A stretch of 64,000 nt of DNA from an uncultured Planctomycetia bacterium (GCA_964430735.1 CAYSFB010000006.1:12089-76088); one strand, 5' to 3'; shown: positions 5,643 to 42,751, numbered from the stretch's first letter. The notes: generated by a model not told the origin, from the sequence alone. Program-made: numbers and translations.

Positions 5643-7229
5643 TTACCGCTCCCGCGCCGACCGGGCGAATTCAATCGCCCGGGTTTCGCGAATCACGGTG
5701 ACTCGGATTTGCCCTGGAAAATTGGAGCTCTGCTGAACGGCCTTCGTGATCTCACGCGCGAGCGCGGGCATTGCGCTGTCAGGCACTTCATTCGGATTGA
5801 CCAAAATACGCAGTTCGCGGCCCGCCTGGATCGCAAACACGCTCTCGACACCCGGAATATTTTTCGCGACCTTCTCGAGCTTTTCCATCCGGTGCAGATG
5901 CTGTTCGATGGTCTCGCGCCGGGCGCCGGGCCGTGAAGCCGAAATCGCATCGGCCGCCTGAAGGAGGACGGGCCAGACCGACTTGGGCGAAATATCCTCA
6001 TGATGCGCTTCGATCGCGTGGATCACATCGTCCGGCTCGCCGTATTTGCGCGCGAGCTCCCCGCCGATGAGGGCGTGCGGCCCTTCGACCTCATGGGACA
6101 CGGTCTTACCGATGTCGTGCAGCAGCCCCGCCCGGCGCGCGGTCACCGCGTCCAGTCCGAGCTGACCGGCGAACACGTTCATGACGGCTGCGACTTCCTT
6201 GGCGTGCGACAGCGAATTCTGACCGTAGCTGGTCCGGTACTTGAGCTTGCCGACAATGGTCATGAGCTCCGGATGCATGTCCGACACGCCGATCTCGAGC
6301 GCCGCCGCCGCGCCGTCCGCGCGGATCGACTGGTCGAGCTCCTGCCGGACCTTGCCGACCGTTTCCTCGATGCTCGAGGGATGGATGCGGCCGTCCTCGA
6401 TGAGGCGCTCAAGCGCCAGCCGCGCGACCTCACGCCGGACCGGATCAAACGCCGAAAGAACCACCGCGCCGGGCGTTTCGTCGATGACGACGTCGACGCC
6501 CGTCGCCTGTTCGAAGGTGCGAATGTTGCGCCCTTCCTTGCCGATGATACGCCCCTTCATCTCTTCGCCGGGAAGCTGGACGACGCTGACCGTCTGATCG
6601 ATCGAAAGCTCCGTCGCGCAGCGCTGAATGGCCTGGGCGACGATATTCTTGGCCTTCTTGTCGGCCATCTCGCGCGCCTCCTCCTCGACGGTCTTGATCA
6701 TCCGGCTGGCCTCGACGCGAACTTCGGTTTCCATCCGGCGCAGCAGCTGCCGTTTGGCGTCTTCGCTGCCGAGACCCGAAAGGCTCTGAAGGCGCTCCTG
6801 CTCCTCCTGGATCATGCGCTCGAGGTCGGCTTTGCGCTTTTCCATTTCTTTCTCGGCCGCTTTGAGACGGTCGGACGCCTTTTCGGCTTCGTGCTGCTTC
6901 GCGCGGGCTTCGTCCATCTGCTTCTGGGCCGCGCGCTCGCGCTCGCCGGACCGCGCGATGGCTTCCTCCATTTCGCGGCGGCGCAGCGTCTGCGTTTCAT
7001 CAAATTCGTGTTTCAGGCGAAGCAGGTAGCTCTCGCCTTCCTTTTGGAGTTCGGCGCGGCGGCGTTCGGCGTCGCGCTCGGAGGCGGTGCGGATCTCTTC
7101 GGCGCGCGTCTCGGCGCCGCGGATTTTTTGCTCGCCGATCTTGAGGCGGACCCAGTATCCGAGCGCCGTAAAAACGGCGCCGAAGACGAGGCTGAGGAGG
7201 ATGAACGAAACGAGGCTGGCGGTGCTCAT
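5643..7229 (-). CDS. rny: ribonuclease Y
   Basis: 528 aa. N-terminal TM helix, long coiled-coil, KH domain (GRIIGKEGRNIRTFEQATGVDVVID) and HD domain (HAKEVAAVMNV...LLHDIGK). Confidence 0.9.
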   Translation of the reverse strand: MSTASLVSFILLSLVFGAVFTALGYWVRLKIGEQKIRGAETRAEEIRTASERDAERRRAELQKEGESYLLRLKHEFDETQTLRRREMEEAIARSGERERAAQKQMDEARAKQHEAEKASDRLKAAEKEMEKRKADLERMIQEEQERLQSLSGLGSEDAKRQLLRRMETEVRVEASRMIKTVEEEAREMADKKAKNIVAQAIQRCATELSIDQTVSVVQLPGEEMKGRIIGKEGRNIRTFEQATGVDVVIDETPGAVVLSAFDPVRREVARLALERLIEDGRIHPSSIEETVGKVRQELDQSIRADGAAAALEIGVSDMHPELMTIVGKLKYRTSYGQNSLSHAKEVAAVMNVFAGQLGLDAVTARRAGLLHDIGKTVSHEVEGPHALIGGELARKYGEPDDVIHAIEAHHEDISPKSVWPVLLQAADAISASRPGARRETIEQHLHRMEKLEKVAKNIPGVESVFAIQAGRELRILVNPNEVPDSAMPALAREITKAVQQSSNFPGQIRVTVIRETRAIEFARSARER

Positions 7230-7289
7230 TTTAAAGGAACTCCATTTTCGAAGGGCCGCCCTCCAAACTGCCGGCGGAGCCCGCTTGAT

Positions 7290-7856
7290 TTATGCGAACA
7301 GGACGCGGTCTACTTTTTCGTCGTGCGGCTCGCGCGGAACGCGGTCCACGCGCTGACATTCAAACGCCGGCGCGATGCGCGCGGCCTTCCGGCCGAGCCG
7401 GGACAAAAACTTGTCGTAATACCCCTTGCCGCGGCCGAGCCGGTATCCCTCGCGGTCAAACGCGAGTCCGGGCACGATCACGCAATCAATCGCTGCCGGG
7501 TCCGCCGCCGGCAGCACGCCGGGGTCCGGCTCGAGAATCCCGAACGGCCCGGGAACAAAAGAACCTTCCCAGCGCGTGAGCCGCCGCGCTTCGAGCACGC
7601 CTTCCGCCGCCAGGACGCGCGGGACGAGGACGGTGCGCCCCTCGGACAAAAGCCGCCGGATGAGGCCGTGCGTATCAAACTCCTCGGGCATCGACACATA
7701 GCAAAATACGGTGCGGCTTTTTTGAAAAAGTTCGTCCGCCTGAAGCTCCCCGGCGAGCCGTGCGGACCGAAGCCGCCGGTCCTCGGGACTCATCTGCCGC
7801 AGCGCGGCCGCAATCCTGCTCCGCAGCGCTTTTTTTTGATCCGCGACGGGATCCAT
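7290..7856 (-). CDS. 5-formyltetrahydrofolate cyclo-ligase (MTHFS)
   Basis: Conserved motifs LVPRV, GYRLGRGKGYYD. I chose the internal Met (MDPVADQKKALRSRI...), which gives about 188 aa. Its ATG overlaps the Rrf2 stop as TGATG. The track ORF extends to 7979, but that extension is an Arg/Pro-rich stretch with no recognisable similarity. Confidence 0.75.
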   Translation of the reverse strand: MDPVADQKKALRSRIAAALRQMSPEDRRLRSARLAGELQADELFQKSRTVFCYVSMPEEFDTHGLIRRLLSEGRTVLVPRVLAAEGVLEARRLTRWEGSFVPGPFGILEPDPGVLPAADPAAIDCVIVPGLAFDREGYRLGRGKGYYDKFLSRLGRKAARIAPAFECQRVDRVPREPHDEKVDRVLFA

Positions 7857-8323
7857 CAAATATTGAAGTGGATCGGCTGCGCGAGAGCCGACCGGGGTTC
7901 CTGCCGCGCCGACTGGATCAGCTCTTCGAGCGAAACGCGGCTCAGGGCTTCGGCGAAGCCGTCCGACAGCCTCCGCCAAAAAAGCTCGGCCGCCGTGCGG
8001 GCAACCGGTTGGGACTTGCGGCTCGACGATGCGGCCGATCCGCGGGCTTCACCGCTCACGAGCTCGTCCTCGCCGAGTGCGGATAGCAGCGCGCCGACGC
8101 TGATTTGAGACGGCTTGGCCGTAAGCACATACCCGCCGCGCGGGCCACGGACGCTTTTGACCCAGCCCTCGCGCTTGATGCGGCTCAAGATCTGCTCGAG
8201 GTAGGCGGCCGAGATTTTTTCGTCCTCGGCGATTTGCGAAATGGAGACAGCGCTCTCCCCGTACCGTTCGGCGAGATAAAGCATCGCCGTCAGACCGTAA
8301 GTGGCGCGGGTAGAAAACTTCAT
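7856..8323 (-). CDS. Rrf2-family transcriptional regulator
   Basis: 155 aa with an Rrf2 winged-helix N-terminus (MKFSTRATYGLTAMLYLAE...SVRGPRGGYVLTAKP). It lacks the three-Cys Fe-S ligand set of IscR. Confidence 0.85.
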   Translation of the reverse strand: MKFSTRATYGLTAMLYLAERYGESAVSISQIAEDEKISAAYLEQILSRIKREGWVKSVRGPRGGYVLTAKPSQISVGALLSALGEDELVSGEARGSAASSSRKSQPVARTAAELFWRRLSDGFAEALSRVSLEELIQSARQEPRSALAQPIHFNI

Positions 8324-8333
8324 GGGGTCCCGG

Positions 8334-8771
8334 TCAGCCGCAGCGCTTGCAGAGGCCGAACAGTTTGTGGGAGTGGCTGATGATCTTGAAGCCCTGGCGG
8401 CGGGCTTCCTCTTCCTGGATCTTCTCGATGGCGTCGCTTTCGAACTCCAGGATGGTCTTGCACTTCACGCAGATCAGGTGGTCGTGGTGCTGTTTGCCGA
8501 GCATCGGCTCGTAGGACATGCGTCCGTCGCCGAAGTCGTGTCCTTCGAAGATTTTGGATTCGGTGAGGAGCGCCAGCGTCCGGTAGAGCGTGGCTTTGGA
8601 GATGGTGCGGTCTCGTTTTTTGACGAGGTCGAGCAGCTCTTCGGCGCCGAAGTGGCGCTTGGCCTCGAAGGCTTCGAGCAGGATCGCCCGCCGCTGAGAG
8701 GTGTACTTGAGGTCCCGCGCGGCCAAAAACTCCTCGAACTTTCTCTCGGCGTCGGCCAAAAACGGGCTCAT
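8334..8771 (-). CDS. Fur-family metalloregulator (Fur/Zur/PerR type)
   Basis: Starts at the internal Met (MSPFLADAERKFEEFL...). DNA-binding helix TLYRTLALL. HHDHLICVKC...CKRCG structural Zn site. The upstream part of the track ORF is Arg-rich with no recognisable similarity. Confidence 0.8.
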   Translation of the reverse strand: MSPFLADAERKFEEFLAARDLKYTSQRRAILLEAFEAKRHFGAEELLDLVKKRDRTISKATLYRTLALLTESKIFEGHDFGDGRMSYEPMLGKQHHDHLICVKCKTILEFESDAIEKIQEEEARRQGFKIISHSHKLFGLCKRCG

Positions 8772-8779
8772 GGTCACCT

Positions 8780-8989
8780 CTAGCTGCTGCAGCGGATGCG
8801 GACGATGTCCAGTTGTTCCCGGATATCTTTGAGCTGTTGGGCGATGTCGGCCTGGCTCTTGATCAGCGTGCCGATGTCTTTCTTGATCTGCGCCAGTTCC
8901 GCGTCCGGAACGTCGGCTGCGCGGACGCTCGCGGTCCCCACCGCCGCTGCTGCGGCCAAAACCAGCAGCAGCCATCCCGCGCGCTTCAT
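8780..8989 (-). CDS. small secreted/periplasmic coiled-coil protein (hypothetical)
   Basis: 69 aa: signal peptide MKRAGWLLLVLAAAAAVGTASVRA followed by an amphipathic helix. Its ATG directly abuts the stop of the upstream NIL-domain gene (TAGATG), and it ends 10 nt before the Fur start, so it looks operonic. Confidence 0.4.
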   Translation of the reverse strand: MKRAGWLLLVLAAAAAVGTASVRAADVPDAELAQIKKDIGTLIKSQADIAQQLKDIREQLDIVRIRCSS

Positions 8990-9251: not shown

Positions 9252-9533
9252 TTAGCGCGCTCCGCCCGCAATGGCCGGAATGATCGAAACTTCGTCGCCG
9301 TCCTTAAGAGCCGTCTCGGCGCCGCTCAGGAAACGGATGTCTTCCTCGTTCACGTACACGTTCACAAAGCGGCGAAGCTTGCCGTCCGCATCGCAAAGGC
9401 GTTCCTTGATCCCGGGGAATTTGGCCTCGAGGTCTTTGAGCATGTCGTTCACGTTCGCGCCGGCAACCTGGACTTCGGACTGGTTGGCGGTGAGCTTTTG
9501 AAGGGGGGTCGGGATGCGGACTTTGATGGCCAT
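9252..9533 (-). CDS. MoaD/ThiS-family sulfur-carrier protein (CysO-like) with C-terminus ...AIAGGAR
   Basis: About 93 aa from the internal ATG ([25 protein letters not shown]...[16 protein letters not shown]). Beta-grasp pattern. A Gly-Gly is followed by two extra residues (AR) before the stop. A JAMM protease gene lies nearby at 15669-16067. Confidence 0.7.
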
Positions 9534-9546
9534 GGTTGTCTCCTGA

Positions 9547-10800
<1,254 letters not shown>

Positions 10801-10883
10801 TGTGAATAAAGGGGTTGTATTTATTTATGACCAAATTACTTGCGTATTCTAACATCCTGGAATGGGCAGGGCAAGTAATAGCA

Positions 10884-10909
10884 CGGGCCGCCCCCCAAGG
10901 GGCGGCCCG
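10884..10909 (-). terminator. GC-rich hairpin (cgggccgcccc-ccaa-ggggcggcccg) between the 1216-aa gene stop and the ThrC-like start; possible intrinsic terminator/attenuator
   Basis: Perfect 11-bp inverted repeat with a 4-nt loop. The downstream U-tract on the minus transcript is weak (UGCUAUUACUU). Confidence 0.3.
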
Positions 10910-10933
10910 CATAGACCTCGTTCAATCATTCAG

Positions 10934-13900
10934 TTACGAGAGCGGATTGCCTGCGATGAGTTCGCGTCCCGGTTCTTCCGGTGCCGCGAACCGCTCATCC
11001 TCACTCTGTTCAGACTGCTGGTCCTGAACCCAGTGCATGTCCAGAATCTGATCCATCGCCGTATTCTGCAGCTCCTCCTCCATCACGGACGAACTCATAT
11101 CGTCCGGGTCGAGCCAGCCGTCGCCGATCGGCAGAATAAACCACTCGTCAACCGGATCGCTCCACTCATCCACTTCGCCTAAATTGACAAGCGACGCAAA
11201 ACGCTCGCCGTCGGCGGATTTGAATTCGAACACCAGGGTTCCAAGCTCCTGCCCGCCTTCCTGCACGAGATAAAACTGATCGATCTGAAAGTCCTCTCCG
11301 CCAAAGTACTCGCGGGCTTCCGCCTGAGCGCGTCCGAGAACATCCTCGGGGCCGTTCTTGCCCAAATAGTGAAGCTCGACCGGTTCCGGCTGTTCCTTGT
11401 CAGGCGATACGAGGTAGCGGGCTTCAAAATGATCGGACTCAAGACCAAATTCGTATATGCCCTTGCCGCCCTCCACCCAGCGGGTGCGGAATTCGTTCTC
11501 AGACGAGGCCACTCCCTCCGCCAAGTGCGTCCGGGCGCTCTGATTGGCGGCGACCACATCGGGATCGACCTCCATCCCGCCGTCAAAGGAAGGCGCATCG
11601 GATCCGGAGGGCGCCAAGGTGCCCGCATAGTCCCGGACATCCACCCTTCCGCTCCGCCAATCATGTTCGCCGTACTTGAAAGCGGCCGCATACGTCCAGA
11701 CGCCGTTTTCCCAGCGAGTTTCGGCAATCCCGATTTCCGCAGGATCGGCGTTGAGCTTCTCCGCGACGGCCTGGACCGCCATCTCCATCCTTTGCTTCAT
11801 ATATGCGGAGGGTTCCACATTGAGAATCGCGCCCTGGCGATTCACCCTCACGTCAAACCGGTATCCGGGCACCGTTTCGACGGCCAACACCATTTCACCT
11901 GCTGCGGGGTCATGCTGAGCCACGCCCGCTACCCGTGCGTCGACTCCATACTTGCGGATCACCGCATCGACCGCTGAGGCCGCAAGATCGGCGCCGGTTT
12001 CCTGATCGATCATCGTTCGAATGATTCGCTGAGCGGAATGGCGGGCATACTCTTCCGAATACACGGAATATCCAAAAAAGCCCGCCTCATACTCAATCTT
12101 GATGTCATGCCCCGCCGCCACCGCATAAATCAAGACCGCGGGCGAGATTCCCGACCCCTCTATCGGCCGCTCCAGAAGCAAAATTCCGTTGATAAAGGAC
12201 TCAGGAGCAACATCCTGATGCGATTGCTTAAAAATCCGGTTCAATTCATGCCGTGCGTCCGCTGCGGCGGTCAGAAGATCAAAGCCACCTTCCGTCGGTA
12301 GCGTCAGCGCGTCGCCGACGACCTTGCCCTTCACGGACGCGTGCGGAAGCAGGAAGTTTATGAATAGACTTTGGTCATCCGCAATCTCATAGCCGCTGAC
12401 CTCAACCGTCTCCGGGTTCAAAAGCCGGATCAACTCCTCTTTGGCCGCCTGGATTCGATCCTCGATGCGGTTGTCGACTTCCACCGCACCTGTTTGGAGA
12501 TCGGCGCGGGCCTCGTAAGTTTTGCCGTCCCTGTCCATCAGGGTGATCCTGAGCATCTGGTCATTCTCGAAGAACCAATCCGCCACGGTCAGCTCAACCG
12601 CGATATCCCGGCCGCCCGCAATCGAAGCCGCGACACGTTCCTTGGCTGTCTGCAAATATTCAACGCCGGTTTGCTGGTCCCAGATCCTGAACACACGGCT
12701 GTACGAAGGCATGTCGTATCGGGAATCCCCGCTCCAGTCATAGATGATGTCGAATCGGTCGGCTGTCCGATAAAAGAATTGATGCTGCGGCACGAATCCC
12801 TCGACCCGCGCCATCAACATCGTGTGTGTGTCGCCGCCCAAGACCCCGGCGCGGCTCATCACCTCGTACCGAGCGGCTCCGGCCGCCTCCACGAGATCCG
12901 GGTTCATCAACTGGACATTTGACTCGCGAATCTCCACATCCACCCCGGCATTGCCAAAAATACTCGTCTCTCCCATTCCATATTGGACCCAGATGCTTCC
13001 ATAGCCGGAAGGGCCGTACCCATCGATCCGGCCGCCGATCGGCGTAACGGGGTTCAGCTTGGCATTCACGGACTCCAGGATGCGGCTCAACTCCACACGG
13101 GCCTCGTCCATAACGGGTTCAATTTTTTCTAGGGTCACGCCGGAAGAGAGATCATCCCAACGGAATTCAAATTCCGCGCTGCCGCTGCGGAGGCGCACGG
13201 AGGCCGAGCCCCCGTCGGCAATGCACCGGACACAAATGGCTTCAGTAGGCGCGTTGATGATTCCGCGATTCTGAAGTTCACGTCGCGCCCCTTCCAGCGC
13301 GGTCACCATGGCCGGGTCCGCCTCGATCACGCCGGACTCGGGGTAGACGGTCATCCAAATCGAACTGTGGATGATGGTCGGACCGTCGACACCCGCCTGT
13401 TCCTGAACACCGCATTCCAGCTGAATCCGACCGCCTTCATCACGCGCAGAAAGCACTTTTACATCACCGAACGGTTCGAGTATTTTGGCGGCCTGCTTGA
13501 GCACATCCTTCAGCGTGACTTCATCTCCAAAGTGAAGAGCGAGCGCCTCGCCGGCCGCATCCAGCTCAACCCAAATTGTCTCGGTGAAGCTGATGCCCAT
13601 ATGGGAACCGTCACGCAATATGCCGAAGCTCATGATCGAATCACCGGGAAGTCCGGCGGTGCGGACCATTTGCTTGGCCTTCTCCACAAGATCGTCTCCC
13701 GAACGGCGCGAAATAAGCTTCTCCAGGCTGGTTCGCTTGGCCGACACGATGCCGTTTAATACATCTGCCTTGAGGATGGCCTTGTACATCGGGGTCGTGA
13801 TATCCGCCTCGATCGCTCGACCGGACTTATTGATTTCCTTGAAGAGCGGGGTCTCGAACCCGCGCAAGCCGTCGATATGCGTTTCGGAAAGGTCAGATCC

Positions 13901-14584
13901 ATCCTTACTGACCAATCGCTGCGATGCAAACCGACGCAAAGCGAGAACCGCTTCCTGCTCGTAATCCTGCAAACCCGAGGTCAACTGGTCCGGATCGACC
14001 CAGACCCGGATATCCCCGCCTTGAAGCTTGAATTGTACGATCGTCCGCGTGCTGTCCGGCGTGATGTTCACGACCTCGTAGATGCTGGGATTAACGATCG
14101 ACACCAACAGGTCCTTGGCAATCTTCTGCACGTCGATGACGACAGGCTTTCCTTGGTCGGCCGGTGTTGCCGACACCAGTCGGACATCGACGGCCCGGCC
14201 CGAATTGTCATAACTGAATTTTTCGATCGACTTCAGCCGCTGGGCAAAGTCGTAGCGGGCGCGGGAAACCAGCCGGTCCCCGATATAGAGGTCCCGGGTA
14301 CCAACGCGTCCGGCAGGTCCTGACCGATAGGAGTAAACCACTGATTTGGCGGCTGTGCTGCGCTTCGATAGACGGCCCCTGTTTCCCTTATAAGATTCGT
14401 CGAGATACTCCGAGCAGGATGACCCGAGGCACACGCTTTTGATCCGCCCGCTTCCATAATAAGTGTAGGCAGGTTTGATGGCGGCATCGGCTGATGGAAT
14501 GGCAAAGAGCACCGAGGAAAGGGGGATCGATACAAGCACCAGAAGTTTTGCGCAGTTGATGGTGATATTCGTGGAATTAGCCAT
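10934..14584 (-). CDS. large secreted hypothetical protein (1216 aa) with recurring PepSY-like beta-domain motifs and an acidic C-terminal tail
   Basis: N-terminal signal peptide (MANSTNITINCAKLLVLVSIPLSSVLFAIPSADA). No catalytic motif recognised. Repeated motifs of the type DRDGKTYEARADLQTGAVEV / ENGVWTYAAAFKYGEHDWRSGRVDV / ELGTLVFEFKSADGERFASLVNLGEV. AT-rich promoter region at 14585-14745. Confidence 0.7.
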   Translation of the reverse strand: MANSTNITINCAKLLVLVSIPLSSVLFAIPSADAAIKPAYTYYGSGRIKSVCLGSSCSEYLDESYKGNRGRLSKRSTAAKSVVYSYRSGPAGRVGTRDLYIGDRLVSRARYDFAQRLKSIEKFSYDNSGRAVDVRLVSATPADQGKPVVIDVQKIAKDLLVSIVNPSIYEVVNITPDSTRTIVQFKLQGGDIRVWVDPDQLTSGLQDYEQEAVLALRRFASQRLVSKDGSDLSETHIDGLRGFETPLFKEINKSGRAIEADITTPMYKAILKADVLNGIVSAKRTSLEKLISRRSGDDLVEKAKQMVRTAGLPGDSIMSFGILRDGSHMGISFTETIWVELDAAGEALALHFGDEVTLKDVLKQAAKILEPFGDVKVLSARDEGGRIQLECGVQEQAGVDGPTIIHSSIWMTVYPESGVIEADPAMVTALEGARRELQNRGIINAPTEAICVRCIADGGSASVRLRSGSAEFEFRWDDLSSGVTLEKIEPVMDEARVELSRILESVNAKLNPVTPIGGRIDGYGPSGYGSIWVQYGMGETSIFGNAGVDVEIRESNVQLMNPDLVEAAGAARYEVMSRAGVLGGDTHTMLMARVEGFVPQHQFFYRTADRFDIIYDWSGDSRYDMPSYSRVFRIWDQQTGVEYLQTAKERVAASIAGGRDIAVELTVADWFFENDQMLRITLMDRDGKTYEARADLQTGAVEVDNRIEDRIQAAKEELIRLLNPETVEVSGYEIADDQSLFINFLLPHASVKGKVVGDALTLPTEGGFDLLTAAADARHELNRIFKQSHQDVAPESFINGILLLERPIEGSGISPAVLIYAVAAGHDIKIEYEAGFFGYSVYSEEYARHSAQRIIRTMIDQETGADLAASAVDAVIRKYGVDARVAGVAQHDPAAGEMVLAVETVPGYRFDVRVNRQGAILNVEPSAYMKQRMEMAVQAVAEKLNADPAEIGIAETRWENGVWTYAAAFKYGEHDWRSGRVDVRDYAGTLAPSGSDAPSFDGGMEVDPDVVAANQSARTHLAEGVASSENEFRTRWVEGGKGIYEFGLESDHFEARYLVSPDKEQPEPVELHYLGKNGPEDVLGRAQAEAREYFGGEDFQIDQFYLVQEGGQELGTLVFEFKSADGERFASLVNLGEVDEWSDPVDEWFILPIGDGWLDPDDMSSSVMEEELQNTAMDQILDMHWVQDQQSEQSEDERFAAPEEPGRELIAGNPLS

Positions 14585-14745
14585 TTGGGTGGGTGCTCCT
14601 AATTAATATCATCAACTAATCGAATTTCAATCTTTGTAAGAACAGGTCAAAGGATACCACTGCCGTTAAACTGATTAGAATTTGGCATAAGATCAGCCAG
14701 TTTTCAAGGGGGGAAGAAAATTTTGATTAGAGGTTGTAGCTTGAA

Positions 14746-15672
14746 TTAGCCTTCGAAGTACTGAACCATGCTGAGATACCGTTCCCCGGAATCCGGAAAA
14801 AGTACCACAACCGTCTTTCCGGAGCCGAGCCGCTCGGCGGCCTTGAGGGCGCCCCAGCACGCTGCGCCGCAGCTGATGCCGGCGAAGATCCCCTCGAGCT
14901 TGCAGAGCCGGGACGCCGTCTTGTACGCGTCCTCGTCCGAGCAGCGAAAAATCTCATCGACTACTTCGCGGTTCAACGTCTGCGGGACGAATCCCGCGCC
15001 GATACCCTGGATCATATGCGCGCCGGGCTTGCCGCCGGACAAAACCGGCGACGTGGCCGGTTCCACGCCAATAATTTTGACGGCCGAATTGTGTTTCTTC
15101 AGCACTTCGCCGACGCCGGAGATCGTGCCGCCCGTGCCGATTCCCGCCACAAAGGCGTCGACCTTGCCGTCCAGATCCGCGAGGATTTCTTTGCCGGTCG
15201 TCTTCCGATGCGCGGCCGGGTTGTCGGGGTTCGTGAACTGACTGGGCATGAACGCGCCCTGGCTTTCGCGCACGAGCTGTTTGGCTTTTTCAACCGCGCC
15301 CGCCATGCCGGAGTCCACCGGCGTCAGCACTACTTCGGCGCCATATGACTTGAGGATCTGCAGCCGCTCGAAGCTCATGTTGTCGGGCATCACGAGCGTC
15401 ACGTGATACCCGCGCGCCGCGCCGACCATGGCCAAACCGATGCCGGTGTTGCCGCTCGTCGCTTCGACGATGCGCGAACCGGTCTTCACGAGACCGTTCT
15501 TCTCGGCCTGATCGATCATATTGAGGGCGATGCGGTCCTTCACGCTGCCACCCGGGTTGAACACCTCGAGCTTCGCGTACACGTCCGCCGCGCCCTTGGG
15601 CACGATGCGGTTCAGCTTCACCATCGGCGTGTTGCCGATCAGATCAGAAATGGACTGGACGGGCTTCGTCAT
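14746..15672 (-). CDS. cysM: cysteine synthase (CysK/CysM family; probably CysM-type using a protein thiocarboxylate donor)
   Basis: 308 aa. PLP lysine motif (GGSVKDR). TSGNTG glycine loop. Its ATG overlaps the stop of the JAMM gene (ATGA). Confidence 0.9.
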   Translation of the reverse strand: MTKPVQSISDLIGNTPMVKLNRIVPKGAADVYAKLEVFNPGGSVKDRIALNMIDQAEKNGLVKTGSRIVEATSGNTGIGLAMVGAARGYHVTLVMPDNMSFERLQILKSYGAEVVLTPVDSGMAGAVEKAKQLVRESQGAFMPSQFTNPDNPAAHRKTTGKEILADLDGKVDAFVAGIGTGGTISGVGEVLKKHNSAVKIIGVEPATSPVLSGGKPGAHMIQGIGAGFVPQTLNREVVDEIFRCSDEDAYKTASRLCKLEGIFAGISCGAACWGALKAAERLGSGKTVVVLFPDSGERYLSMVQYFEG

Positions 15673-16067
15673 ACGACCCGGATCTCCTCAGGCGTCACGT
15701 CGTCCCCCGCGATCCGGTAGGACCGCAGGTCGGGGTTGTTCATGTCGGCCAGCGACACGATGAGGTAACTCACTTCCGGATAAAAGGCCTGACGGCGGTC
15801 GGTCTGCGACGGCTCCGGCGCCGACGCGACATGCGAATGAAAAATTCCGAGCAAGTCCTGCCCGTCCGCGGAAATTTGCTTGAAGGCCTTGAGCTGCTGC
15901 TTCGGATCCATCGTGTACGTGACGGTCGAATGGTCCATGTTCTCGATCGGCAAAAAGTATTTGGCCCGGCCGTTCTTTCCGACCAGGAATCCGCACGCTT
16001 CCTGCGGATACACGCCCTTCGCGTGCTGGACCATTGCCGTGTGGACGTCTTTGGGGATCTCAAGCAT
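15669..16067 (-). CDS. mec: JAMM/MPN+ metalloprotease (Mec+-like, CysO hydrolase)
   Basis: About 133 aa from the internal Met (MLEIPKDVHTAMVQHAKGVYPQEACGFLVG...). JAMM motif E...HSHVASAPEPSQTD (HxHx7Sx2D). The upstream part of the track ORF is Arg-rich with no recognisable similarity. Confidence 0.8.
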   Translation of the reverse strand: MLEIPKDVHTAMVQHAKGVYPQEACGFLVGKNGRAKYFLPIENMDHSTVTYTMDPKQQLKAFKQISADGQDLLGIFHSHVASAPEPSQTDRRQAFYPEVSYLIVSLADMNNPDLRSYRIAGDDVTPEEIRVV

Positions 16068-16072
16068 CGTCG

Positions 16073-16807
16073 TTATTTTCCTGTCGGCCGGTTGTGCAGG
16101 CCGCATTCCTTGTGATCCGGACTTTCCCACCACCACCGTCCGGCGCGCTCGTCCTCGCCCTCTTTGACGGGCCGGGTACAGGGCGCGCAGCCGATGGACC
16201 GGTAACCGGCATCGAACAGCTTGTTGTAAGGAACCTTGTTGCCGCGGATATACGCCCACACCCGCGCCTCGTCCCAGTCGGCCAGGGGGTTCAGCTTCAC
16301 GATCCCGCCCTGAGTCGCCGCGCCCTGCGAGGAATCGATCTCGACCTTGCCGACCTCGGTCCGCGTCACCGACTGCGCCCGGCGCTGTCCCGTGACCCAG
16401 GCTTCAGCTCCGGCCAGCGCGCGCCGGAGCGGTTCGACCTTGCGGATCCCGCAGCACTCCTTGCGGTTCTCGACCGATTCCTTGAACGAATAAAAACCTT
16501 TGGCCCGCACCAGCTGCTCGACCCGCGCCGCGTCCGGAAAAAACACCTCGATCCCGACGCCGTACTTAAACTTGACCGCGTCCATGACCGCGTACGTCTC
16601 TTCGTGGAGACGGCCCGTATCGAGCGTCACGATCCGGACTTTGGGGTCGATCTTCACGGCCATATCGATGAGCACGACGTCCTCGGGACCAAACGACGAC
16701 GCGAGCACGATCTTGGGCCCGAACTTCTTGAGCGCCCAGCCCAAAAGCGCCTCAGGCGACTGCGCTTCGAATTCCCTGCTGAGCTGAACCGCTTCGTCCT
16801 GCTTCAT
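16073..16807 (-). CDS. cysH: adenylylsulfate (APS)/PAPS reductase, Fe-S-containing CysH type
   Basis: 244 aa. PP-loop SFGPEDVVLIDM. Cys pairs CCGIRKVEPL and ECGLH, typical of APS-reductase-type CysH. Confidence 0.85.
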   Translation of the reverse strand: MKQDEAVQLSREFEAQSPEALLGWALKKFGPKIVLASSFGPEDVVLIDMAVKIDPKVRIVTLDTGRLHEETYAVMDAVKFKYGVGIEVFFPDAARVEQLVRAKGFYSFKESVENRKECCGIRKVEPLRRALAGAEAWVTGQRRAQSVTRTEVGKVEIDSSQGAATQGGIVKLNPLADWDEARVWAYIRGNKVPYNKLFDAGYRSIGCAPCTRPVKEGEDERAGRWWWESPDHKECGLHNRPTGK

Positions 16808-16818
16808 AAAAAAGCGGT

Positions 16819-18086
<1,268 letters not shown>

Positions 18087-18087
<1 letters not shown>

Positions 18088-18890
18088 TACATGTACCCTT
18101 TCGCGCGGAGTTTTTGCATCGCGTAGCGCTGCGAATGGTCCTGTTCGCGGCCGACGCGCTCTGAGATCTTGGTGTTTTTAAGTTCTTCAATCACCTTGTC
18201 GACGGTATCGGCGTTGGACTCCACGGGCTTGGTGATCGGCTGGCAGCCGAGCGTGCGGTAACGCTTGCCGTTCTTGGCGAAGTAGAGGTCCACGAGCGGA
18301 ATATTCTCGCGCTTGATGTAATTCCACACGTCGACCTCGGTCCATTCGAGGAGCGGATGGATGCGCACGTGCGTGCCGGGCTCGTAATCCGACTGGAACT
18401 GGTTCCACAGCTCCGGCGGCTGATCCTTGTAATTCCACTCGAAGTCGATGTTGCGGGGTGAAAAGTATTTTTCCTTCGCGCGCGTGCCGTCCTCATCGCG
18501 GCGGATGCCGACAAAAAGCCCGTCCCACTTCTCTTTTTCGATCATCTGCTGGAGGGCAACGGTCTTCATCTCGTGGCAGACGGTGACGGGGTCATTGTTG
18601 TCGTAATTGACGCCGCGTGCCTTGGCCGCTTCGTTGACGCCGACGATGAGCTTGAGGCCCCATTCCCTGGCGTACTTTTCGCGGTAGGCGTACATTTCGG
18701 GGAATTTGAAGGTGGTGTCGATGTGGACGACCGGGAACGGCACCTTGCCGAAAAAAGCCTTCCGGGCGAGCCAGACGTTCACGCAGGAGTCCTTCCCCAT
18801 CGACCACAGCATCGCGGGCTTCTTGAACTTCTTGTAAGCCTCGCGGATGATAAAAATTGACTGGTTTTCGAGCGCGCTCAAATGATCCAC
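18087..18890 (-). CDS. cysD: sulfate adenylyltransferase subunit 2
   Basis: 267 aa. PP-loop motif WSMGKDS. Conserved CysD core. Overlaps the cysN start by 1 nt. Confidence 0.9.
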
Positions 18891-26993: not shown

Positions 26994-27070
<77 letters not shown>

Positions 27071-27113
27071 GAAAAATTGAGAAAAATCCGACTCACGACC
27101 ACGACAAACTCAT

Positions 27114-27197
27114 GCCGGGAGCGGGACTCGAACCCGCAAGAGCCGAAGCCCGTCAGATTTTAAGTCTGAAGCGTATACCAATTCCGCCATCCCGGCA
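27114..27197 (-). tRNA. tRNA-Leu (anticodon TAA), long variable arm, no CCA encoded
   Basis: GCCGGGAUGGCGGAAUUGGUAUACGCUUCAGACUUAAAAUCUGACGGGCUUCGGCUCUUGCGGGUUCGAGUCCCGCUCCCGGCA. Confidence 0.9.
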
Positions 27198-27201
27198 ATT
27201 T

Positions 27202-27275
27202 GGAGGCGACGGCCGGAATTGAACCGGCGTAAACGGTTTTGCAGACCGCTGCCTAACCACTTGGCTACGTCGCCG
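27202..27275 (-). tRNA. tRNA-Cys (anticodon GCA), CCA encoded
   Basis: GGCGACGUAGCCAAGUGGUUAGGCAGCGGUCUGCAAAACCGUUUACGCCGGUUCAAUUCCGGCCGUCGCCUCCA. Confidence 0.9.
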
Positions 27276-31432: not shown

Positions 31433-32206
31433 TTATTGCAATATGTTCTGTACTTCGCCCAAGAATTCTTTTGTGAATTCCTCGTATTTTTTGCTTGCGA
31501 CAGAATCTTTATCGTATCGCATAATCGGTTTGCCGAATCCGGGGGCTTCGCTCATTTTGACCGACCGCGGAATCACCGATTGATAAACTTTTTCGCCAAA
31601 ATGCTTCCGGACCTCTTGAATGACTTGCTCGGTGAGTTTGGTCCGGCCATCGGCCATCGTCATGAGAATTCCTTCGATATGCAAACTAGGGTTCAAATTA
31701 TCCCGTACCAGATCGATGGTTTTGACCAGCTGGCCCAAGCCCTCCAGGGCGTAGTACTCACACTGGATCGGAATCAGAACAGAGCCGGCGGCGGTAAGCG
31801 CATTGATCGTGAGAATGCCTAGTGACGGCGGACAATCAATAATGCAATAGTCAAATTTGTCAGCCAAAGGAGCAAAAGCCCGTTTTAATCGGCCTTCGCG
31901 ACCCATTTCGTTCACAAGTTCGATTTCTGCGCCCGTTAGATTGATATTGGAGGGGACGAGCCACAGATTCTCGATCTGCGTCTGAATCATGATCTCTTCT
32001 ACGGGCTTATGCTGGAGAAGGATGTCGTAAGCAGACTGCTGGATGGTATTTTTGTCGATACCCAAGCCGCTGGTGGCATTTCCTTGTGGATCCAAGTCAA
32101 CCAGAATGGTCTTTTTACCGGCAAGTCCTAAAAAACTCGCCAGTGTGATGGAGGTTGAGGTCTTTCCAACGCCGCCTTTTTGATTACAAACTGAGACTAT
32201 TTTCAT
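31433..32206 (-). CDS. parA: chromosome partitioning ATPase ParA (Soj)
   Basis: Starts at the internal Met (MKIVSVCNQKGGVGKTSTSI...), deviant Walker A. Confidence 0.9.
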   Translation of the reverse strand: MKIVSVCNQKGGVGKTSTSITLASFLGLAGKKTILVDLDPQGNATSGLGIDKNTIQQSAYDILLQHKPVEEIMIQTQIENLWLVPSNINLTGAEIELVNEMGREGRLKRAFAPLADKFDYCIIDCPPSLGILTINALTAAGSVLIPIQCEYYALEGLGQLVKTIDLVRDNLNPSLHIEGILMTMADGRTKLTEQVIQEVRKHFGEKVYQSVIPRSVKMSEAPGFGKPIMRYDKDSVASKKYEEFTKEFLGEVQNILQ

Positions 32207-32214
32207 AGGGTATT

Positions 32215-32230
32215 TGTTCCACGTGGAACG
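32215..32230. promoter_or_regulatory. parS centromere-like site (tGTTCCACGTGGAACg)
   Basis: 14-bp perfect palindrome GTTCCACGTGGAAC, 9 nt upstream of the parA start. Matches the parS consensus TGTTNCACGTGAAACA with two mismatches, one in each half-site (C for T, G for A), so it stays palindromic. Confidence 0.6.
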
Positions 32231-32320
32231 TTTATGCACCTTGTGTACTAAGTGTGAATTGTGGGAACTATATCAAAAGTTTAAATACAGGTCTAGTAAT
32301 TTTGTTATCTAGAAGCCGCC

Positions 32321-32340
32321 GTTGTTCCACGTGGAACAAC
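32321..32340. promoter_or_regulatory. parS centromere-like site within a 20-bp perfect palindrome (GTTGTTCCACGTGGAACAAC)
   Basis: Read directly. Lies immediately 3' of the mnmG stop, in the slot where rsmG would normally sit. Confidence 0.65.
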
Positions 32341-32343
32341 GCT

Positions 32344-34167
32344 TTAGCTGGATGAAGAAGAGCGAGAGAGCTTTTCGACGACGATCGATAGAATCGAAAT
32401 ATCGGAAGGGCGGATGCCGGAGATTCTGGAGGCTTGGCCGATAGTTGCAGGACGGATATGAATGAGTTTTTCACGAGATTCACGGCTCATGCTTTGAATC
32501 GCAGCATAATCCAACGAGGCGGGGATCTTTTTATTCTCAAGATGATGGGCGCGGCCAATCGCTTTGAGTTCGCGGTCGATATATCCTTCATATTTAACTT
32601 CGATGGCCAGCTTAAGGGCTACGTTTTTCGTAATCCCGTCAGGAGCAAGGATACGATAGGCCTCTTCTAAGGGGGTTTCTGGCATTCGGAGGTGCATGAG
32701 AAGGCTTTTGCCTTCATATCGGATACCACTTAGCTTGGCTTTGAAAGTCTGAAGGCTCTCTCGGTCGCTCTCAAAGGCCTGGTAATGGGCCTCAGAAATG
32801 AGCCCCAGGCGGTGCCCATGAGCCATTAAACGCAGATCGGCATTGTCTTGGCGGAGCAAAAGCCGGTGCTCTGCTCGAGACGTAAACATCCGATAAGGCT
32901 CAAGCGTGCCCTTCGTCACCAAATCGTCAATCAAAACACCGATATAAGCTTCGTGTCGCTGAAGAATAAACGGTTCCTCGCCTCGAATCTTAAGCACGGC
33001 ATTGATGCCGGCCATCAGGCCCTGGCACCCGGCCTCTTCATAGCCGGATGTTCCGTTGATCTGGCCAGCCAAATAAAGACCTTCGACTAATTTGGTCTCC
33101 AGAGTCGAATGGAGCTGAGTTGGTTGAACAAAGTCGTATTCCACAGCATATCCAAATCTCATAAGTTCAGCATTTTCAAGGCCTTGTATACTTTGTATCA
33201 TGCGTATCTGTATATCCTGTGGAAGACTTGTGGATACTCCATTGACGTAAACTTCCTGTGTTTGACGTCCTTCGGGCTCCAAAAAGATCTGATGCCGCTC
33301 TTTATCGGCAAATTTGACGACTTTGTCTTCGATCGACGGACAGTAACGCGGTCCGCGGCTTTGGATGCGGCCGGAGTAAAGCGGTGAGCGGTGAATATTT
33401 TCTTTGATAATCCGATGTGTTTTTTCATTCGTGAACGTGAGATAGCACGGCAACTGCTCCTGCGTGATCCGATCCGTTCGGAAGCTGAACGGTTCGGGAT
33501 CCGCGTCACCGGGTTGAGGATCGAGTTTGGAAAAATCGATGGACCGAGCGTTCAATCGACAGGGCGTGCCTGTTTTGAGGCGCAGCACCTCGAATCCGAG
33601 TTCCGCGAGACACGCGGACAAACCGACCGACGGCTTGTCGCCGGCGCGGCCGCCGCCGAAAGAAAGTTCTCCGATGTGAATCAATCCGTTCAAAAAAGTT
33701 CCGGTCGTAATGATGACGGACTTCGCGTGATACAGCGTGTCGATCGATGTCACGACGCCGGTGATGCGACTACCTTCAACGACGAGGCGTTTGACTTCAC
33801 CCATTTTGACGTCGAGCCGATCCTGCGACTCGAGAATATTTTTCATCGTCCATTGATAGAGCTTTTTATCGGACTGCGCGCGCGGCGCCCAGACGGCGGG
33901 ACCTTTTCCCTTGTTCAACATGCGGAATTGAATGCCGGTGAGATCTGTGACGCGGGCCATCTCGCCGCCGAGCGCGTCCATTTCTTTGACGATGTGGCCT
34001 TTGGCGAGTCCGCCGATGGCGGGATTGCAGGACATCTGCGCGATGGAGTCGACGTTCATCGTGAGCATGAGCGTCTTTGCGCCCATGCGCGCGGCCGCAA
34101 GCGCCGCTTCGCAGCCGGCGTGTCCCGCGCCGACCACGATCACGTCATACGTTCCGAGCAAAATCAT
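32344..34167 (-). CDS. mnmG: tRNA uridine 5-carboxymethylaminomethyl modification enzyme MnmG (GidA)
   Basis: 607 aa. FAD motif DVIVVGAGHAGCEAA. Conserved MnmG core. Confidence 0.95.
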   Translation of the reverse strand: MILLGTYDVIVVGAGHAGCEAALAAARMGAKTLMLTMNVDSIAQMSCNPAIGGLAKGHIVKEMDALGGEMARVTDLTGIQFRMLNKGKGPAVWAPRAQSDKKLYQWTMKNILESQDRLDVKMGEVKRLVVEGSRITGVVTSIDTLYHAKSVIITTGTFLNGLIHIGELSFGGGRAGDKPSVGLSACLAELGFEVLRLKTGTPCRLNARSIDFSKLDPQPGDADPEPFSFRTDRITQEQLPCYLTFTNEKTHRIIKENIHRSPLYSGRIQSRGPRYCPSIEDKVVKFADKERHQIFLEPEGRQTQEVYVNGVSTSLPQDIQIRMIQSIQGLENAELMRFGYAVEYDFVQPTQLHSTLETKLVEGLYLAGQINGTSGYEEAGCQGLMAGINAVLKIRGEEPFILQRHEAYIGVLIDDLVTKGTLEPYRMFTSRAEHRLLLRQDNADLRLMAHGHRLGLISEAHYQAFESDRESLQTFKAKLSGIRYEGKSLLMHLRMPETPLEEAYRILAPDGITKNVALKLAIEVKYEGYIDRELKAIGRAHHLENKKIPASLDYAAIQSMSRESREKLIHIRPATIGQASRISGIRPSDISILSIVVEKLSRSSSSS

Positions 34168-34188
34168 CGGAAGTTCCGCGGTTCGGGA

Positions 34189-35823: not shown

Positions 35824-35833
35824 GAGGAGATTC

Positions 35834-36064
35834 CTAGCGTTGGGTCTTCCGGGGGGCTGGAACCGGATCAAATCCGAACGAACCCCAGGGATGGCACTTA
35901 GTTAATCGACGCAATATCAATAAAGACCCGCCCCAAGACCCGTGCGCTTCAATGGCTTGAGAAGCATAATTCGAACAGGACGGCTCAAATCTACAAACAC
36001 ATAACCTGCTGGGGTTAAACAGGTTAGATAATACGAAAAAAAAGATCTTAAAAATTCGTTTCAA
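35834..36064 (-). CDS. yidD: membrane protein insertion efficiency factor YidD
   Basis: 76 aa. [19 protein letters not shown] motif. Confidence 0.85.
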
Positions 36065-42742: not shown

Positions 42743-42751
42743 TGTGGATAA
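42743..42751. promoter_or_regulatory. DnaA box (TGTGGATAA, perfect) overlapping the dnaA GTG start codon
   Basis: Read directly: ...tcTGTGGATAAtttgaac, where GTG GAT AAT TTG AAC codes for V/M-D-N-L-N of DnaA. Confidence 0.5.

Follow-up and report, generated by a model that had tools for sequence, protein, structure and literature searches.

The window, a 64,000-nt stretch of DNA, carries a sulfur-assimilation cluster into which a gene for a 1216-aa protein is set. The rest of the cluster (cysD, cysN, APS/PAPS reductase, JAB, ThiS/MoaD-like and NIL genes) lies entirely on the minus strand. The features at the locus are listed below from the upstream to the downstream flank.

14746-15672, minus strand: upstream flank, cysteine synthase of the CysK/M family (PALP, 2.6e-82; TIGR01139 cysK)
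14585-14745, minus strand: AT-rich leader from the cysteine synthase stop to the start of the 1216-aa gene, with AGGAG inside (GC 0.37)
10934-14584, minus strand: gene of an orphan, putatively exported modular protein of 1216 aa (ORF list, coding periodicity, second assembly)
14483-14584, minus strand: putative signal peptide, residues 1-34, with a hydrophobic core at ~11-30 and an A-D-A↓A cleavage motif (Kyte-Doolittle scan)
14150-14482, minus strand: residues 35-145, N-terminal region of basic charge with four short YD-like repeats (by eye and regular expression)
11165-14149, minus strand: modular body, residues 146-1140, ~13 predicted tandem helix-plus-beta-sheet modules of 60-95 aa each (manual parsing, model)
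13988-14128, minus strand: A-type module 1, residues 153-199, scoring highest against the module of the remote relatives P0002/P0003 (HMM and AF2)
12470-12592, minus strand: marginal A-type module, residues 665-705, holding the previously quoted motif DRDGKTYEARADLQTGAVEV (module HMM)
12335-12451, minus strand: A-type module, residues 712-750 (8.8 bits; null maximum 3.8)
11204-11260, minus strand: marginal A-type core, residues 1109-1127, holding the previously quoted motif ELGTLVFEFKSADGE (module HMM)
10937-11164, minus strand: acidic C-terminal tail, residues 1141-1216 (charge count)
10882-10911, minus strand: GC-rich, terminator-like hairpin 23 nt 3' of the stop, with a weak T tail (13-bp stem, 11 GC pairs)
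10882-14738, minus strand: block of 3857 bp (GC 0.571) that the closest relative, L060, lacks (blastn)
10801-10880, minus strand: ancestral cysK-thrC spacer with a promoter-like thrC site (promoter scan)
9547-10800, minus strand: downstream flank, PLP enzyme of the threonine-synthase family whose N-terminus has a Cys-rich ribbon (profile matches)

The gene begins 161 nt from the cysteine synthase gene on the same strand, and ThiS/MoaD-like and NIL genes follow the downstream threonine-synthase-family gene. The first-pass annotation had placed it between cysM and a ThrC-like gene in the same direction. Position and strand are as described, but the upstream gene passes the NCBIfam equivalog TIGR01139 cysK (437.8 bits; cutoff 350.95) and is therefore of CysK type, not CysM. 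The reading frame starts with ATG, 11 nt downstream of the AGGAG at 14596-14600, and its stop codon is at 10934-10936. GC3 exceeded GC1 and GC1 exceeded GC2 in each 200-codon block (0.68, 0.63 and 0.42, respectively, over the full length). The probability of 1216 codons without a stop at the local composition is ~1e-19, and the longest open run in any other frame of the gene is 264 codons. The sequence agrees at 100% identity with an independent Logan assembly (L001) across 16,035 bp, both junctions included. The ORF is a genuine coding gene, in agreement with its first description. A spurious 702-aa antisense ORF is also present in the window.

The leader has a GC content of 37% compared with 58.5% for the window and is less structured than its shuffles (z = +1.35). 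It gave no Rfam match at E ≤ 1, and the promoter and terminator scan found neither a consensus sigma-70 site nor a terminator in it. It has no counterpart in L060 and lacks the TCCGTGTATA motif common to the remote relatives P0002/P0003. On the other side of the gene, the 81-nt fold at the hairpin has an energy of -34.5 kcal/mol (z = -3.0). In the adjoining spacer, the promoter-like thrC site is TTGCCC-17-TAGAAT with TG (10874-10846), and the spacer sequence GATGTTAGAATACGCAAGTAATTT...GGTCATAAATAAAT matches GATGATAGAATACACAACCAATTT...GGTTATAAATAAATG of the L002 spacer. Both the AT-rich upstream region and the GC-rich hairpin noted in the first-pass annotation are thus present, and they make the independent transcription unit that it had proposed plausible; the lack of a consensus promoter and of a terminator after cysteine synthase speaks against it. 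Transcription may also read through from the cys operon, since the empty site of L060 has a GC hairpin too, similar to but not alignable with that at 10882-10911. With no terminator between the operon and the gene, co-regulation with sulfur assimilation is possible.

Residues ~11-30 are the sole hydrophobic segment of the protein (19-mers above 1.6 on the Kyte-Doolittle scale start only at residues 7-16), and A-D-A↓A follows at 32-34. Hydropathy and motif inspection thus gave the hydrophobic core and AXA site of Sec export, and no lipobox is present in the N-terminus. The mature product would have a mass of 130 kDa, a pI of 4.7 and few cysteines; the composition is ordinary (R 6.5%, Cys 0.5%, Met 2.1%). 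The first 100 residues have a net charge of +8, and the YD-like repeats of the basic region are YTYYGSGRI, GRLSKR, GRVGTR and YDNSGR. Toward the other end, residues 1101-1200 have a net charge of -23, and D+E account for 26% of the last 70 residues compared with 3% for K+R. Pfam detected no domain at all, known or catalytic, and a motif scan found no LPXTG, PEP-CTERM, RTX or RHS-core motif. The protein is accordingly predicted to be exported via Sec, without a membrane anchor or a catalytic domain. The signal peptide, the acidic final 70 residues and the lack of a catalytic motif had all been pointed out from the sequence before, and these descriptions hold.

An exhaustive HMMER search of 1.84 billion representatives retrieved only the protein itself and one marginal match, P0002 (phmmer E = 3.8e-4; whole-protein hhalign probability 9.6%), whose sole relative is P0003 (39% identity). 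By these searches the 1216-aa protein appears close to an orphan. P0002/P0004 and P0003 are metagenomic proteins of 1300 and 1758 aa (Logan runs ERR7850085, SRR30949880). Like the 1216-aa protein, P0002 and P0003 have an N-terminal signal/anchor, many small helix-plus-sheet modules that alternate in a long row, YD-like repeats, an acidic Q-rich end and no Pfam domains, although their YD-like repeats are C-terminal rather than N-terminal. Their genes lie directly 3' of ECF sigma and FecR anti-sigma pairs, in organisms with a GC content of 48%, whereas the gene upstream of the 1216-aa gene is cysteine synthase and no such pair precedes it.

The three proteins share a ~60-aa A module with the consensus xTGxDLYxxAxxxLxxxxNPxxYxLxxW...LxFxFxLxDGxxIxxxVDxxTG. 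An HMM built from P0002/P0003 only scored 36.5 bits on the 1216-aa protein, whereas none of 500 block shuffles exceeded 5.2. A-type module 1 alone scored 15.2 bits (null maximum 3.8 in 500 shuffles), and after masking of the two best A modules the remaining protein gave 5.2 bits, where the null reached at most 5.0. The core at residues 1109-1127 reached 4.1 bits and, in a second test, 1.6 bits (99th percentile 0.9). The B-type module, which alternates with A, scored 3.3 bits, above the 99th percentile of its null (2.0) and below the highest null score (7.4). At the level of sequence profiles, only the A module has a significant match in other proteins. Aligned with those of P0002/P0003, the units look coherent by eye, and a pattern of one helix and 3-4 strands recurs at least 7 times in a low-confidence full-length model. 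The protein has at least two A-type modules, and probably at least five. The first-pass annotation had quoted three recurring short motifs, which lie at residues 684, 959 and 1113. Two of the three fall inside marginal matches to the module HMM, which was built from only the remote relatives, but the pairwise self-alignment of the protein (score 47) was not above chance, shuffled controls reaching up to 50.

AF2 modeling of residues 145-294 from an 18-row alignment gave sub-domain A with a pLDDT of ~96. Its elements, numbered within the unit from residue 145, are H8-19, E25-32, E37-43, E46-53 and E58-60. The predicted A module of ~60 aa is a single helix against an antiparallel sheet of 3-4 strands, with D-x-x-T-G at the end, and its topology in this confident model is PepSY-like. 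The D-x-x-T-G-type ending is one that we take to resemble the PepSY consensus. PepSY (PF03413) and PepSY-like/BLIP-like domains (DUF2874 structure 4k61, BLIP-like 4fr9) are, like the A module, extracytoplasmic, ~60 aa long and often in tandem, and their last strand likewise ends in a D-x-x-T-G-like turn. The earlier suggestion of PepSY-type domains holds for this topology only. Pfam PepSY matched neither the whole protein (E ≤ 0.1) nor its fragments or 21 single modules (E ≤ 10), nor the A, B and tandem consensus sequences (E ≤ 10). The sole PepSY match among PDB sequences, a PepSY propeptide, had a non-significant E of 0.14. The BLIP-like/PepSY-like structures 4k61, 4fr9 and 4hbr were within the top 20 Foldseek matches out of 350,542 chains, none of them significant (E 0.3-0.6, TM ~0.3, rmsd >12 Å).

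In known proteins, PepSY/BLIP-like domains bind peptidases or beta-lactamases and keep them in check. If the A modules were true divergent members, the tandem array could be a polyvalent inhibitor or chaperone of secreted hydrolases that sequesters or regulates extracytoplasmic lytic enzymes, its own or those of a host or prey. The topology, the length, the V-D-x-x-T-G turn, the propeptide match and the three Foldseek matches point in this direction, as does the proposal that Omnitrophota are predators or parasites deploying cell-wall-degrading proteins. We consider it unlikely in view of the four Pfam tests and the poor superpositions. The protein has no significant profile or structure match; it also lacks the associated peptidase or transmembrane PepSY partner of known systems, and no peptidase or lytic enzyme gene adjoins. 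Known PepSY proteins have 1-4 copies of the domain, in contrast to ~13 modules here, and if the module were a divergent PepSY/BLIP-like binder, no known tandem array of that fold would be larger than the one here.

Gene order is kept at 56 related Omnitrophota loci, of which none (0/56) has the 1216-aa gene, and tblastn found no match to the protein at any of 80 related loci. In the 56 relatives, cysK and thrC are adjacent in 30, and the slot between them holds NIR_SIR in ~10, an ABC permease with an NMT1 binding protein in ~14 and NIR_SIR-TusA in 2. The cysteine synthase/thrC-like junction is a variable slot in Omnitrophota with at least 5 states across relatives. A search for orthologues at this position across the lineage found none; the slot is empty or otherwise filled in every relative examined, which bears out the proposal of a lineage-specific gene. 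In L060, cysK and thrC are 85 bp apart; blastn homology to this relative ends at window position 14739 and restarts at 10800, with 74 bp between in L060. The distance to this closest sampled relative is large (dS 0.5-0.85), so that gain versus loss in the sister lineage, and its timing, are weakly constrained.

The first-pass annotation had also considered acquired cargo. As recent foreign DNA this is not supported by the codon usage, which is not foreign: the gene ranks 17th of 29 genes with a GC3 z of -0.86 and is not deviant, with a GC3 below that of the flanking housekeeping genes. Direct or inverted repeats flanking the 3857-bp block were not found beyond chance, phage, plasmid, PHROG and PADLOC searches gave no match for the gene, and the nearest tRNAs are 12 kb away; an integrase or transposase, target-site duplications or terminal repeats, phage or plasmid likeness, an adjacent tRNA and deviant composition, the marks of a mobile element or genomic island, are all lacking. 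Native-like codon usage and the absence of mobile-element scars would also suit an ancestral gene, inherited from the ancestor shared with L060 but deleted in that relative, with fast evolution hiding older orthologues or repeated loss. The divergence of the nearest relative and the rapid change of such proteins (P0002 and P0003 are only 39% identical) fit this history as well. It is nevertheless quite unlikely: besides the 30 relatives with adjacent cysK and thrC, 26 have unrelated fillers, no remnant of the gene is found in any, the ancestral spacer is intact 3' of the block, and many independent clean losses would be required. We infer that a single Omnitrophota lineage acquired the gene, at a gap in its sulfur-assimilation cluster whose content varies.

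On balance, we lean toward a lineage-restricted gene that encodes an exported modular protein for binding or scaffolding and lies where it does incidentally, the function being read from the architecture. The AT-rich leader and the ORF, possibly with the hairpin, would have been gained as one block on the branch of this lineage, landing after the stop codon of cysteine synthase and ahead of the thrC promoter, with no recognisable mobile element involved. The gain would be old enough, or the donor similar enough, for the codon usage to look native. The product would be a "beads-on-a-string" protein of ~130 kDa (signal peptide, basic YD-like region, ~13 small modules and acidic tail) that would serve in the periplasm or at the surface as a multivalent binder or scaffold. 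Poorly conserved, fast-evolving proteins of this sort are common in Omnitrophota. The product would have no enzymatic role in sulfur assimilation, its location being positional hitch-hiking in a permissive intergenic site. No link of the protein to sulfur chemistry is evident. Every slot filler in the relatives is sulfur-related, which could hint at a non-neutral position.

Those fillers, the same strand, the 161-nt distance from cysK without a terminator-like site, and the hairpin after the gene, with a similar one after cysK in the empty-site relative, would fit a last gene of a cysDN-cysH-JAB-cysK transcript. Its product would then serve sulfur-source acquisition in the periplasm or at the surface, standing in for the ABC-transporter or sulfite-reductase genes of the relatives' slot. 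This is very improbable, as the protein has no likeness to any binding protein, sulfatase, reductase or transporter, its only relatives are encoded behind ECF sigma/FecR pairs away from sulfur genes, and the slot is empty in 30 of the 56 relatives that run the cluster. Depletion of Cys and Met is typical of sulfur-starvation proteins; both are at ordinary levels here. A longer shot still is that the A/B modules form a new extracytoplasmic family whose other known carriers are ECF sigma/FecR signalling targets only. A copy captured by the sulfate-assimilation operon at its 3' end, 5' of the terminator, would couple the output of a surface or periplasmic scaffold to sulfur status, and an envelope-remodelling protein would have been rewired from stress-sigma to metabolic-operon control.

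RHS/YD-repeat proteins resemble the 1216-aa protein in being secreted and in having short Y-x-Y-x-x-x-G-R-hydrophobic motifs. A polymorphic toxin or RHS-type effector, with YD repeats and a variable cargo delivered to competitors or hosts, would agree with the YD-like motifs at the N-terminus and with sub-threshold RHS_repeat matches in P0002, P0003 and a 1931-aa neighbour. We give it very little credence, since only ~4 such motifs occur (YD dipeptides likewise number only 4), all below profile thresholds (no RHS_repeat match in residues 1-149 at E ≤ 10), and there is no RHS core, no DPxGL motif and no toxin tip, the C-terminal tail being acidic and of low complexity; nor does an immunity-sized gene lie between the gene and thrC. 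It is equally improbable that the gene is a pseudogene in decay, an ORF that arose by chance in GC-rich DNA or a product of chimeric assembly, for although the sequence is single across all databases and the window does hold a spurious ORF, the open frame, the codon-position GC, the ordinary amino-acid composition, the signal peptide and ribosome-binding site at the first ATG, a module that folds confidently in AF2 and matches independent proteins, and the second assembly all contradict it.

Large exported ORFs that are poorly conserved and have few annotations have been described in Omnitrophota and proposed to be adhesins or surface proteins (PMC10066038; bioRxiv 10.1101/2023.11.21.568195). 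The present gene is similar to these giant ORFs in phylum, export, scarcity of domains and poor conservation between genomes. At 3.65 kb, however, it is far below the >20 kb by which giant ORFs are defined (PMC10066038), and its product lacks their multiple transmembrane helices and C39/S8 peptidase domain; no type II secretion or pilus locus adjoins it in the window. The S-layer role suggested by the first-pass annotation found no specific evidence. The signal peptide, 130-kDa mass, pI of 4.7 and few cysteines are shared with S-layer proteins but are non-specific, Pfam found no SLH or other anchoring domain, and the codon usage is unlike that of a very highly expressed gene.

The preferred reading, a lineage-restricted scaffold gene, makes the locus a clean case, open to dating, of an uncultivated phylum in which a conserved metabolic operon tolerates a large unrelated gene at one specific junction. 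It also adds a small repeat module, confidently folded by AF2 and without a Pfam model, to the "dark" exported proteins of Omnitrophota, which are suspected of mediating contact between cells in a lifestyle that depends on a host. The protein is one of many lineage-specific orphans in metagenome-assembled genomes, and its gene is unusual in detail and ordinary in kind for Omnitrophota. The 1931-aa neighbour is a second large, exported and sparsely annotated ORF in the same window.

The large open reading frame (ORF) starts with ATG, runs over 10934..14584 of the minus strand in the ORF listing of the window and encodes 1216 aa; an AGGAG sequence lies 11 nt 5' of the ATG (14596-14600). The neighbouring genes, all on the minus strand, are as follows.

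18087-18890 (-), cysD
16819-18087 (-), cysN
16073-16807 (-), APS/PAPS reductase
15669-16067 (-), JAB/Mec-type desampylase-like protein
14746-15672 (-), cysteine synthase, passing the NCBIfam CysK equivalog
9547-10800 (-), threonine-synthase-family PLP enzyme (ThrC-like)
9252-9533 (-), ThiS/MoaD/SAMP-like carrier
following these (-), NIL-domain protein, then Fur and Rrf2 regulators

Because of these assignments, the first-pass annotation was right to describe a sulfur-assimilation and sulfur-carrier cluster; one small amendment is that the synthase, called cysM there, scores as CysK-type. The nearest relatives of the ThrC-like protein (66-79% identity) come almost all from MAGs of Candidatus Omnitrophota, some of them labelled "uncultured Planctomycetia". 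The longest ORF of the Fur-family gene (8334-8975, minus strand, 213 aa) includes an R/G/P-rich N-terminal extension (8780-8975) that is missing from the 145-aa call in the Logan assembly. The NIL and Fur genes are separated by a further called ORF, of 69 aa and with no Pfam match.

The leader of the large gene (161 nt) has 37% GC against 58.5% for the window, and 23 nt past the stop codon stands a hairpin with a 13-bp stem containing 11 GC pairs; the AT-rich upstream region and the GC-rich hairpin reported at first reading were thus both recovered. No riboswitch or other regulatory RNA was found in the leader. At the gathering threshold, Rfam matched nothing in the window except tRNA genes, three of them clustered at 26997-27274 (-) and a lone one at 50738-50812 (+).

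From its sequence, the large protein has a predicted Sec-type signal peptide, no further membrane segment and no enzyme domain. Its sole hydrophobic segment spans residues ~11-30 and is followed by A-D-A|A. The mature protein (130 kDa, pI 4.7) is polarised in charge, the first 100 residues being basic (+8) and the tail very acidic (-23); D and E make up 26% of the final 70 residues, and K and R 3%. Searches against Pfam, NCBIfam and PDB sequences gave no matches. The signal peptide, the acidic last 70 residues and the lack of a catalytic motif, all proposed earlier, therefore stand. Manual parsing divided the body (residues 146-1140) into ~13 helix-plus-sheet modules. A full-length AlphaFold2 run without an alignment, used cautiously and solely for its secondary-structure pattern (mean pLDDT 37), contained at least seven repeats of one helix plus three to four strands. 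Pairwise self-alignment for internal repeats reached a top score of 47, compared with up to 50 in shuffles, and no DNA-level tandem repeats were found.

In a search of 5.8 billion clusters, the large protein matched only itself, as a single-member cluster. Exhaustive HMMER searching of 1.84 billion representatives added one marginal match, P0002 (1300 aa, E = 3.8e-4, five stretches), which itself has only one relative, P0003 (1758 aa, 39% identity). Metagenome and viral contig scans yielded no further relatives; one locus from the metagenome scan with an A1 alignment, on a phage terminase-like contig (L084), was rejected as spurious. P0002 and P0003 consist of a signal or anchor segment, alternating A and B modules, and C-terminal YD/RHS-like repeats with an acidic, Q-rich tail. 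The A module comprises ~62 aa (xTGxDLYxxAxxxLxxxxNPxxYxLxxW...LxFxFxLxDGxxIxxxVDxxTG) and the B module ~90 aa (...aR.eIa.klG....dVHinG...).

Whole-protein hhalign of the large protein against P0002 and P0003 was unconvincing (probability 9.6%), and module-level HMMs were therefore used instead. The A-module HMM, built from P0002 and P0003 alone, scored 36.5 bits on the large protein, compared with a maximum of 5.2 in 500 block shuffles. The best domains scored 15.2 bits (residues 153-199) and 8.8 bits (residues 712-750), and weaker ones fell at 665-705, 864-883 and 1109-1127; with the two best masked, the rest scored 5.2, against 5.0 for the best shuffle. Sharing of the B module was not significant. 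As judged from these profile matches, the large protein is built as an array of modules, at least two of which have homologues in two other exported proteins of modular build. The recurrence of short motifs described at first reading is real at the family level, because two of the three (residues 684 and 1113) fall within weak A-type matches, although self-alignment gave no signal for them.

P0002 and P0003 are the closest things to the large protein and have the A module in common with it, but they differ in genomic context and in the placement of YD-like repeats. Immediately 5' of each of their genes stand genes for an ECF sigma factor and an anti-sigma factor of FecR type, on contigs of 48% GC. 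On both contigs, the stretch from the fecR stop to the beginning of the modular-protein gene (L082, 2900-3118; L083, 9947-10001) contains the sequence TCCGTGTATA(C/T)A, a candidate ECF-dependent promoter element; no ECF-type promoter common to these upstream regions and the leader of the large gene was found. In L082, a 47-aa ORF is also present between fecR and the modular-protein gene.

An alignment of 18 rows, comprising A+B units from the three proteins, was used for AlphaFold2 prediction of residues 145-294 (pLDDT 74.9, pTM 0.70). Sub-domain A was modelled with a pLDDT of ~96 as a helix of 12 residues, then three long strands and a short one, and sub-domain B as a longer helix and a sheet (pLDDT 57-88). 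Such a topology, closed by a D-x-x-T-G turn as in A, is expected of PepSY-type domains and is a lead rather than a test. With the threshold relaxed to E<=10, no PepSY-family Pfam match was obtained for the large protein, for fragments of it, for any of 21 modules taken separately or for profile consensus sequences, and the A module has no Pfam model at the sequence level. A PDB sequence search gave one PepSY propeptide chain (E = 0.14). Foldseek against the PDB gave nothing below E = 0.1; the BLIP-like/PepSY-like periplasmic proteins 4k61, 4fr9 and 4hbr were among its top 20 (E 0.3-0.6, TM ~0.3). The modelled fold had no significant match in a viral structure set. The A profile also matched polyubiquitin among PDB sequences, with E values as low as 3e-18, but these matches were dismissed as an artefact: they span Ub-Ub junctions, and the score sums tandem copies of a beta-hairpin pattern at ~18 bits each. 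The earlier suggestion of PepSY-like motifs is thus upheld in the topology of the predicted model and not in the Pfam and Foldseek searches. Among named folds, PepSY/BLIP-like domains come nearest; the A module is PepSY-like in its predicted topology and at most a candidate member of that family. That the protein is a polyvalent hydrolase inhibitor of PepSY/BLIP style, which the same topology would suit, is unlikely.

To compare the position of the gene, the surroundings of the ThrC-like gene in 80 related loci (L002-L081) were searched with every cluster protein (tblastn, E<=1e-5). The large protein matched none of the 80, so that this synteny comparison places the gene at this position in no relative. 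The closest relative, L060 (DNA 82-90% identical; protein identity 99% for ThrC and 95% for CysN), has only 85 bp between cysK and thrC, and its homology to the window ends at 14739 and restarts at 10800. In the 56 loci of Omnitrophota relatives where cysK lies directly 5' of thrC, the junction is empty (gap <=350 bp) in 30; it holds an ABC permease with an NMT1/SsuA-type binding protein in ~14, a NIR_SIR/4Fe-4S sulfite-reductase-like gene in ~10 and a NIR_SIR-TusA fusion in two. The junction is therefore a variable slot, and the large gene a filler unique to the window. The 80 nt 5' of thrC (10801-10880) contain a TG-extended TAGAAT promoter-like site and recognisably equal the spacer of the related locus L002, which sets the extra block at ~10882-14738 (3857 bp), comprising the AT-rich leader, the ORF and the hairpin. 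The empty site of L060 also has a GC hairpin, similar in kind and not alignable to that of the window; the hairpin may have arrived with the large gene or may be an old cysK terminator. Parsimony across the 56 loci favours a gain on the window's branch over repeated clean loss, and an ancestral gene lost elsewhere is for this reason improbable.

No flanking repeats, integrase or tRNA were found beside the extra block, and the large gene had no phage, plasmid, PHROG or PADLOC (defence-system) similarity. Its GC3 (0.68) is lower than that of its immediate neighbours (0.77-0.86). The proposal of acquired cargo found no sign in composition: against 29 credible window genes, the GC3 z-score was -0.86, within the window's spread, and codon usage ranked 17th of 29, so that a foreign composition was rejected. 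Of the 29, parA, mnmG and dnaN are lowest in GC3 (0.52-0.59) and deviate most in codon usage, well beyond the large gene. A recombination tract, considered because CysH and JAB are 77% identical to those of L060 and ThrC 99%, was also rejected, as dS was similar (0.51-0.85) across all six flanking genes. The uneven protein identity therefore reflects dN, i.e. constraint and not import: dN was 0.014 for the ThrC-like gene, 0.023-0.039 for cysD and cysN, and 0.14-0.15 for the APS/PAPS reductase and JAB protein. On these dS values, the closest genome in the sample is far removed, and hence the gain was not necessarily recent.

The large gene is very probably a real, exported, lineage-specific gain. 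The fuller statement, in which this gain also acts as a multivalent binding or scaffold protein, has somewhat better than an even chance. After export, the protein would act in the periplasm or farther out as an elongated multivalent binder or scaffold. Its place in the cys cluster would be hitch-hiking, at a permissive intergenic site just past a stop codon and before the next promoter. Coupling to sulfur metabolism by operon read-through has in its favour that no terminator separates cysK from the large gene and that all other fillers of the slot are sulfur-related; we give it little credence. Omnitrophota have poorly conserved, fast-evolving exported proteins with proposed surface interactions in a host-dependent lifestyle, and a binding or scaffold function would fit that kind (PMC10066038; bioRxiv 10.1101/2023.11.21.568195). 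Large orphan exported proteins are thus already described in this phylum and the present one is another such, well below the size of the "giant" ORFs in those papers; the small domain family inside it is possibly new.

A second such ORF in the window (36733-42528, plus strand, 1931 aa, TTG start as listed, N-terminal hydrophobic segment) is flanked on one side by the yidC end of the origin region and on the other by dnaA (42744-44096), in a neighbourhood that is likewise highly conserved; the origin-region genes (31433-35871, 42744-45335) are parA-like, mnmG/gidA, yidC, dnaA and dnaN. Its GC3 (0.69) is akin to that of the large gene. It contains YD-like repeats, and its Pfam RHS_repeat score of 21.7 bits falls just short of the 22-bit cutoff; it has no PDB or PADLOC matches and no BLASTP similarity to the large protein. 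An RHS-type effector is a highly improbable reading of the large protein itself, in which YD-like motifs were seen at the N-terminus by eye only and neither an RHS_repeat match nor a DPxGL core was found.

Explicit coding tests were applied to the large gene because this GC-rich window holds long spurious antisense ORFs. GC3 (0.68) exceeded GC1 (0.63) and GC2 (0.42) in every 200-codon block, the amino-acid composition was ordinary (R = 6.5%), and the longest open stretch in other frames across the region was <=264 codons. A run of 1216 stop-free codons has P ~1e-19 at its base composition, and the separately produced Logan assembly of the locus (L001, run SRR14271366) matches it with 100% identity across 16,035 bp, both flanks included. 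The large gene is a real gene; that the ORF is dead or artefactual is scarcely credible in view of the stop-free length, the GC3 pattern and this identity. A 702-aa ORF at 6000-8108 (+) lies on the strand opposite the genes for RNase Y, 5-formyltetrahydrofolate cyclo-ligase and Rrf2. It is rich in R (12%), its GC1 exceeds its GC3, and it is therefore spurious, of the type usual in GC-rich DNA; other parts of the window have several more antisense ORFs of similar kind (250-830 aa).
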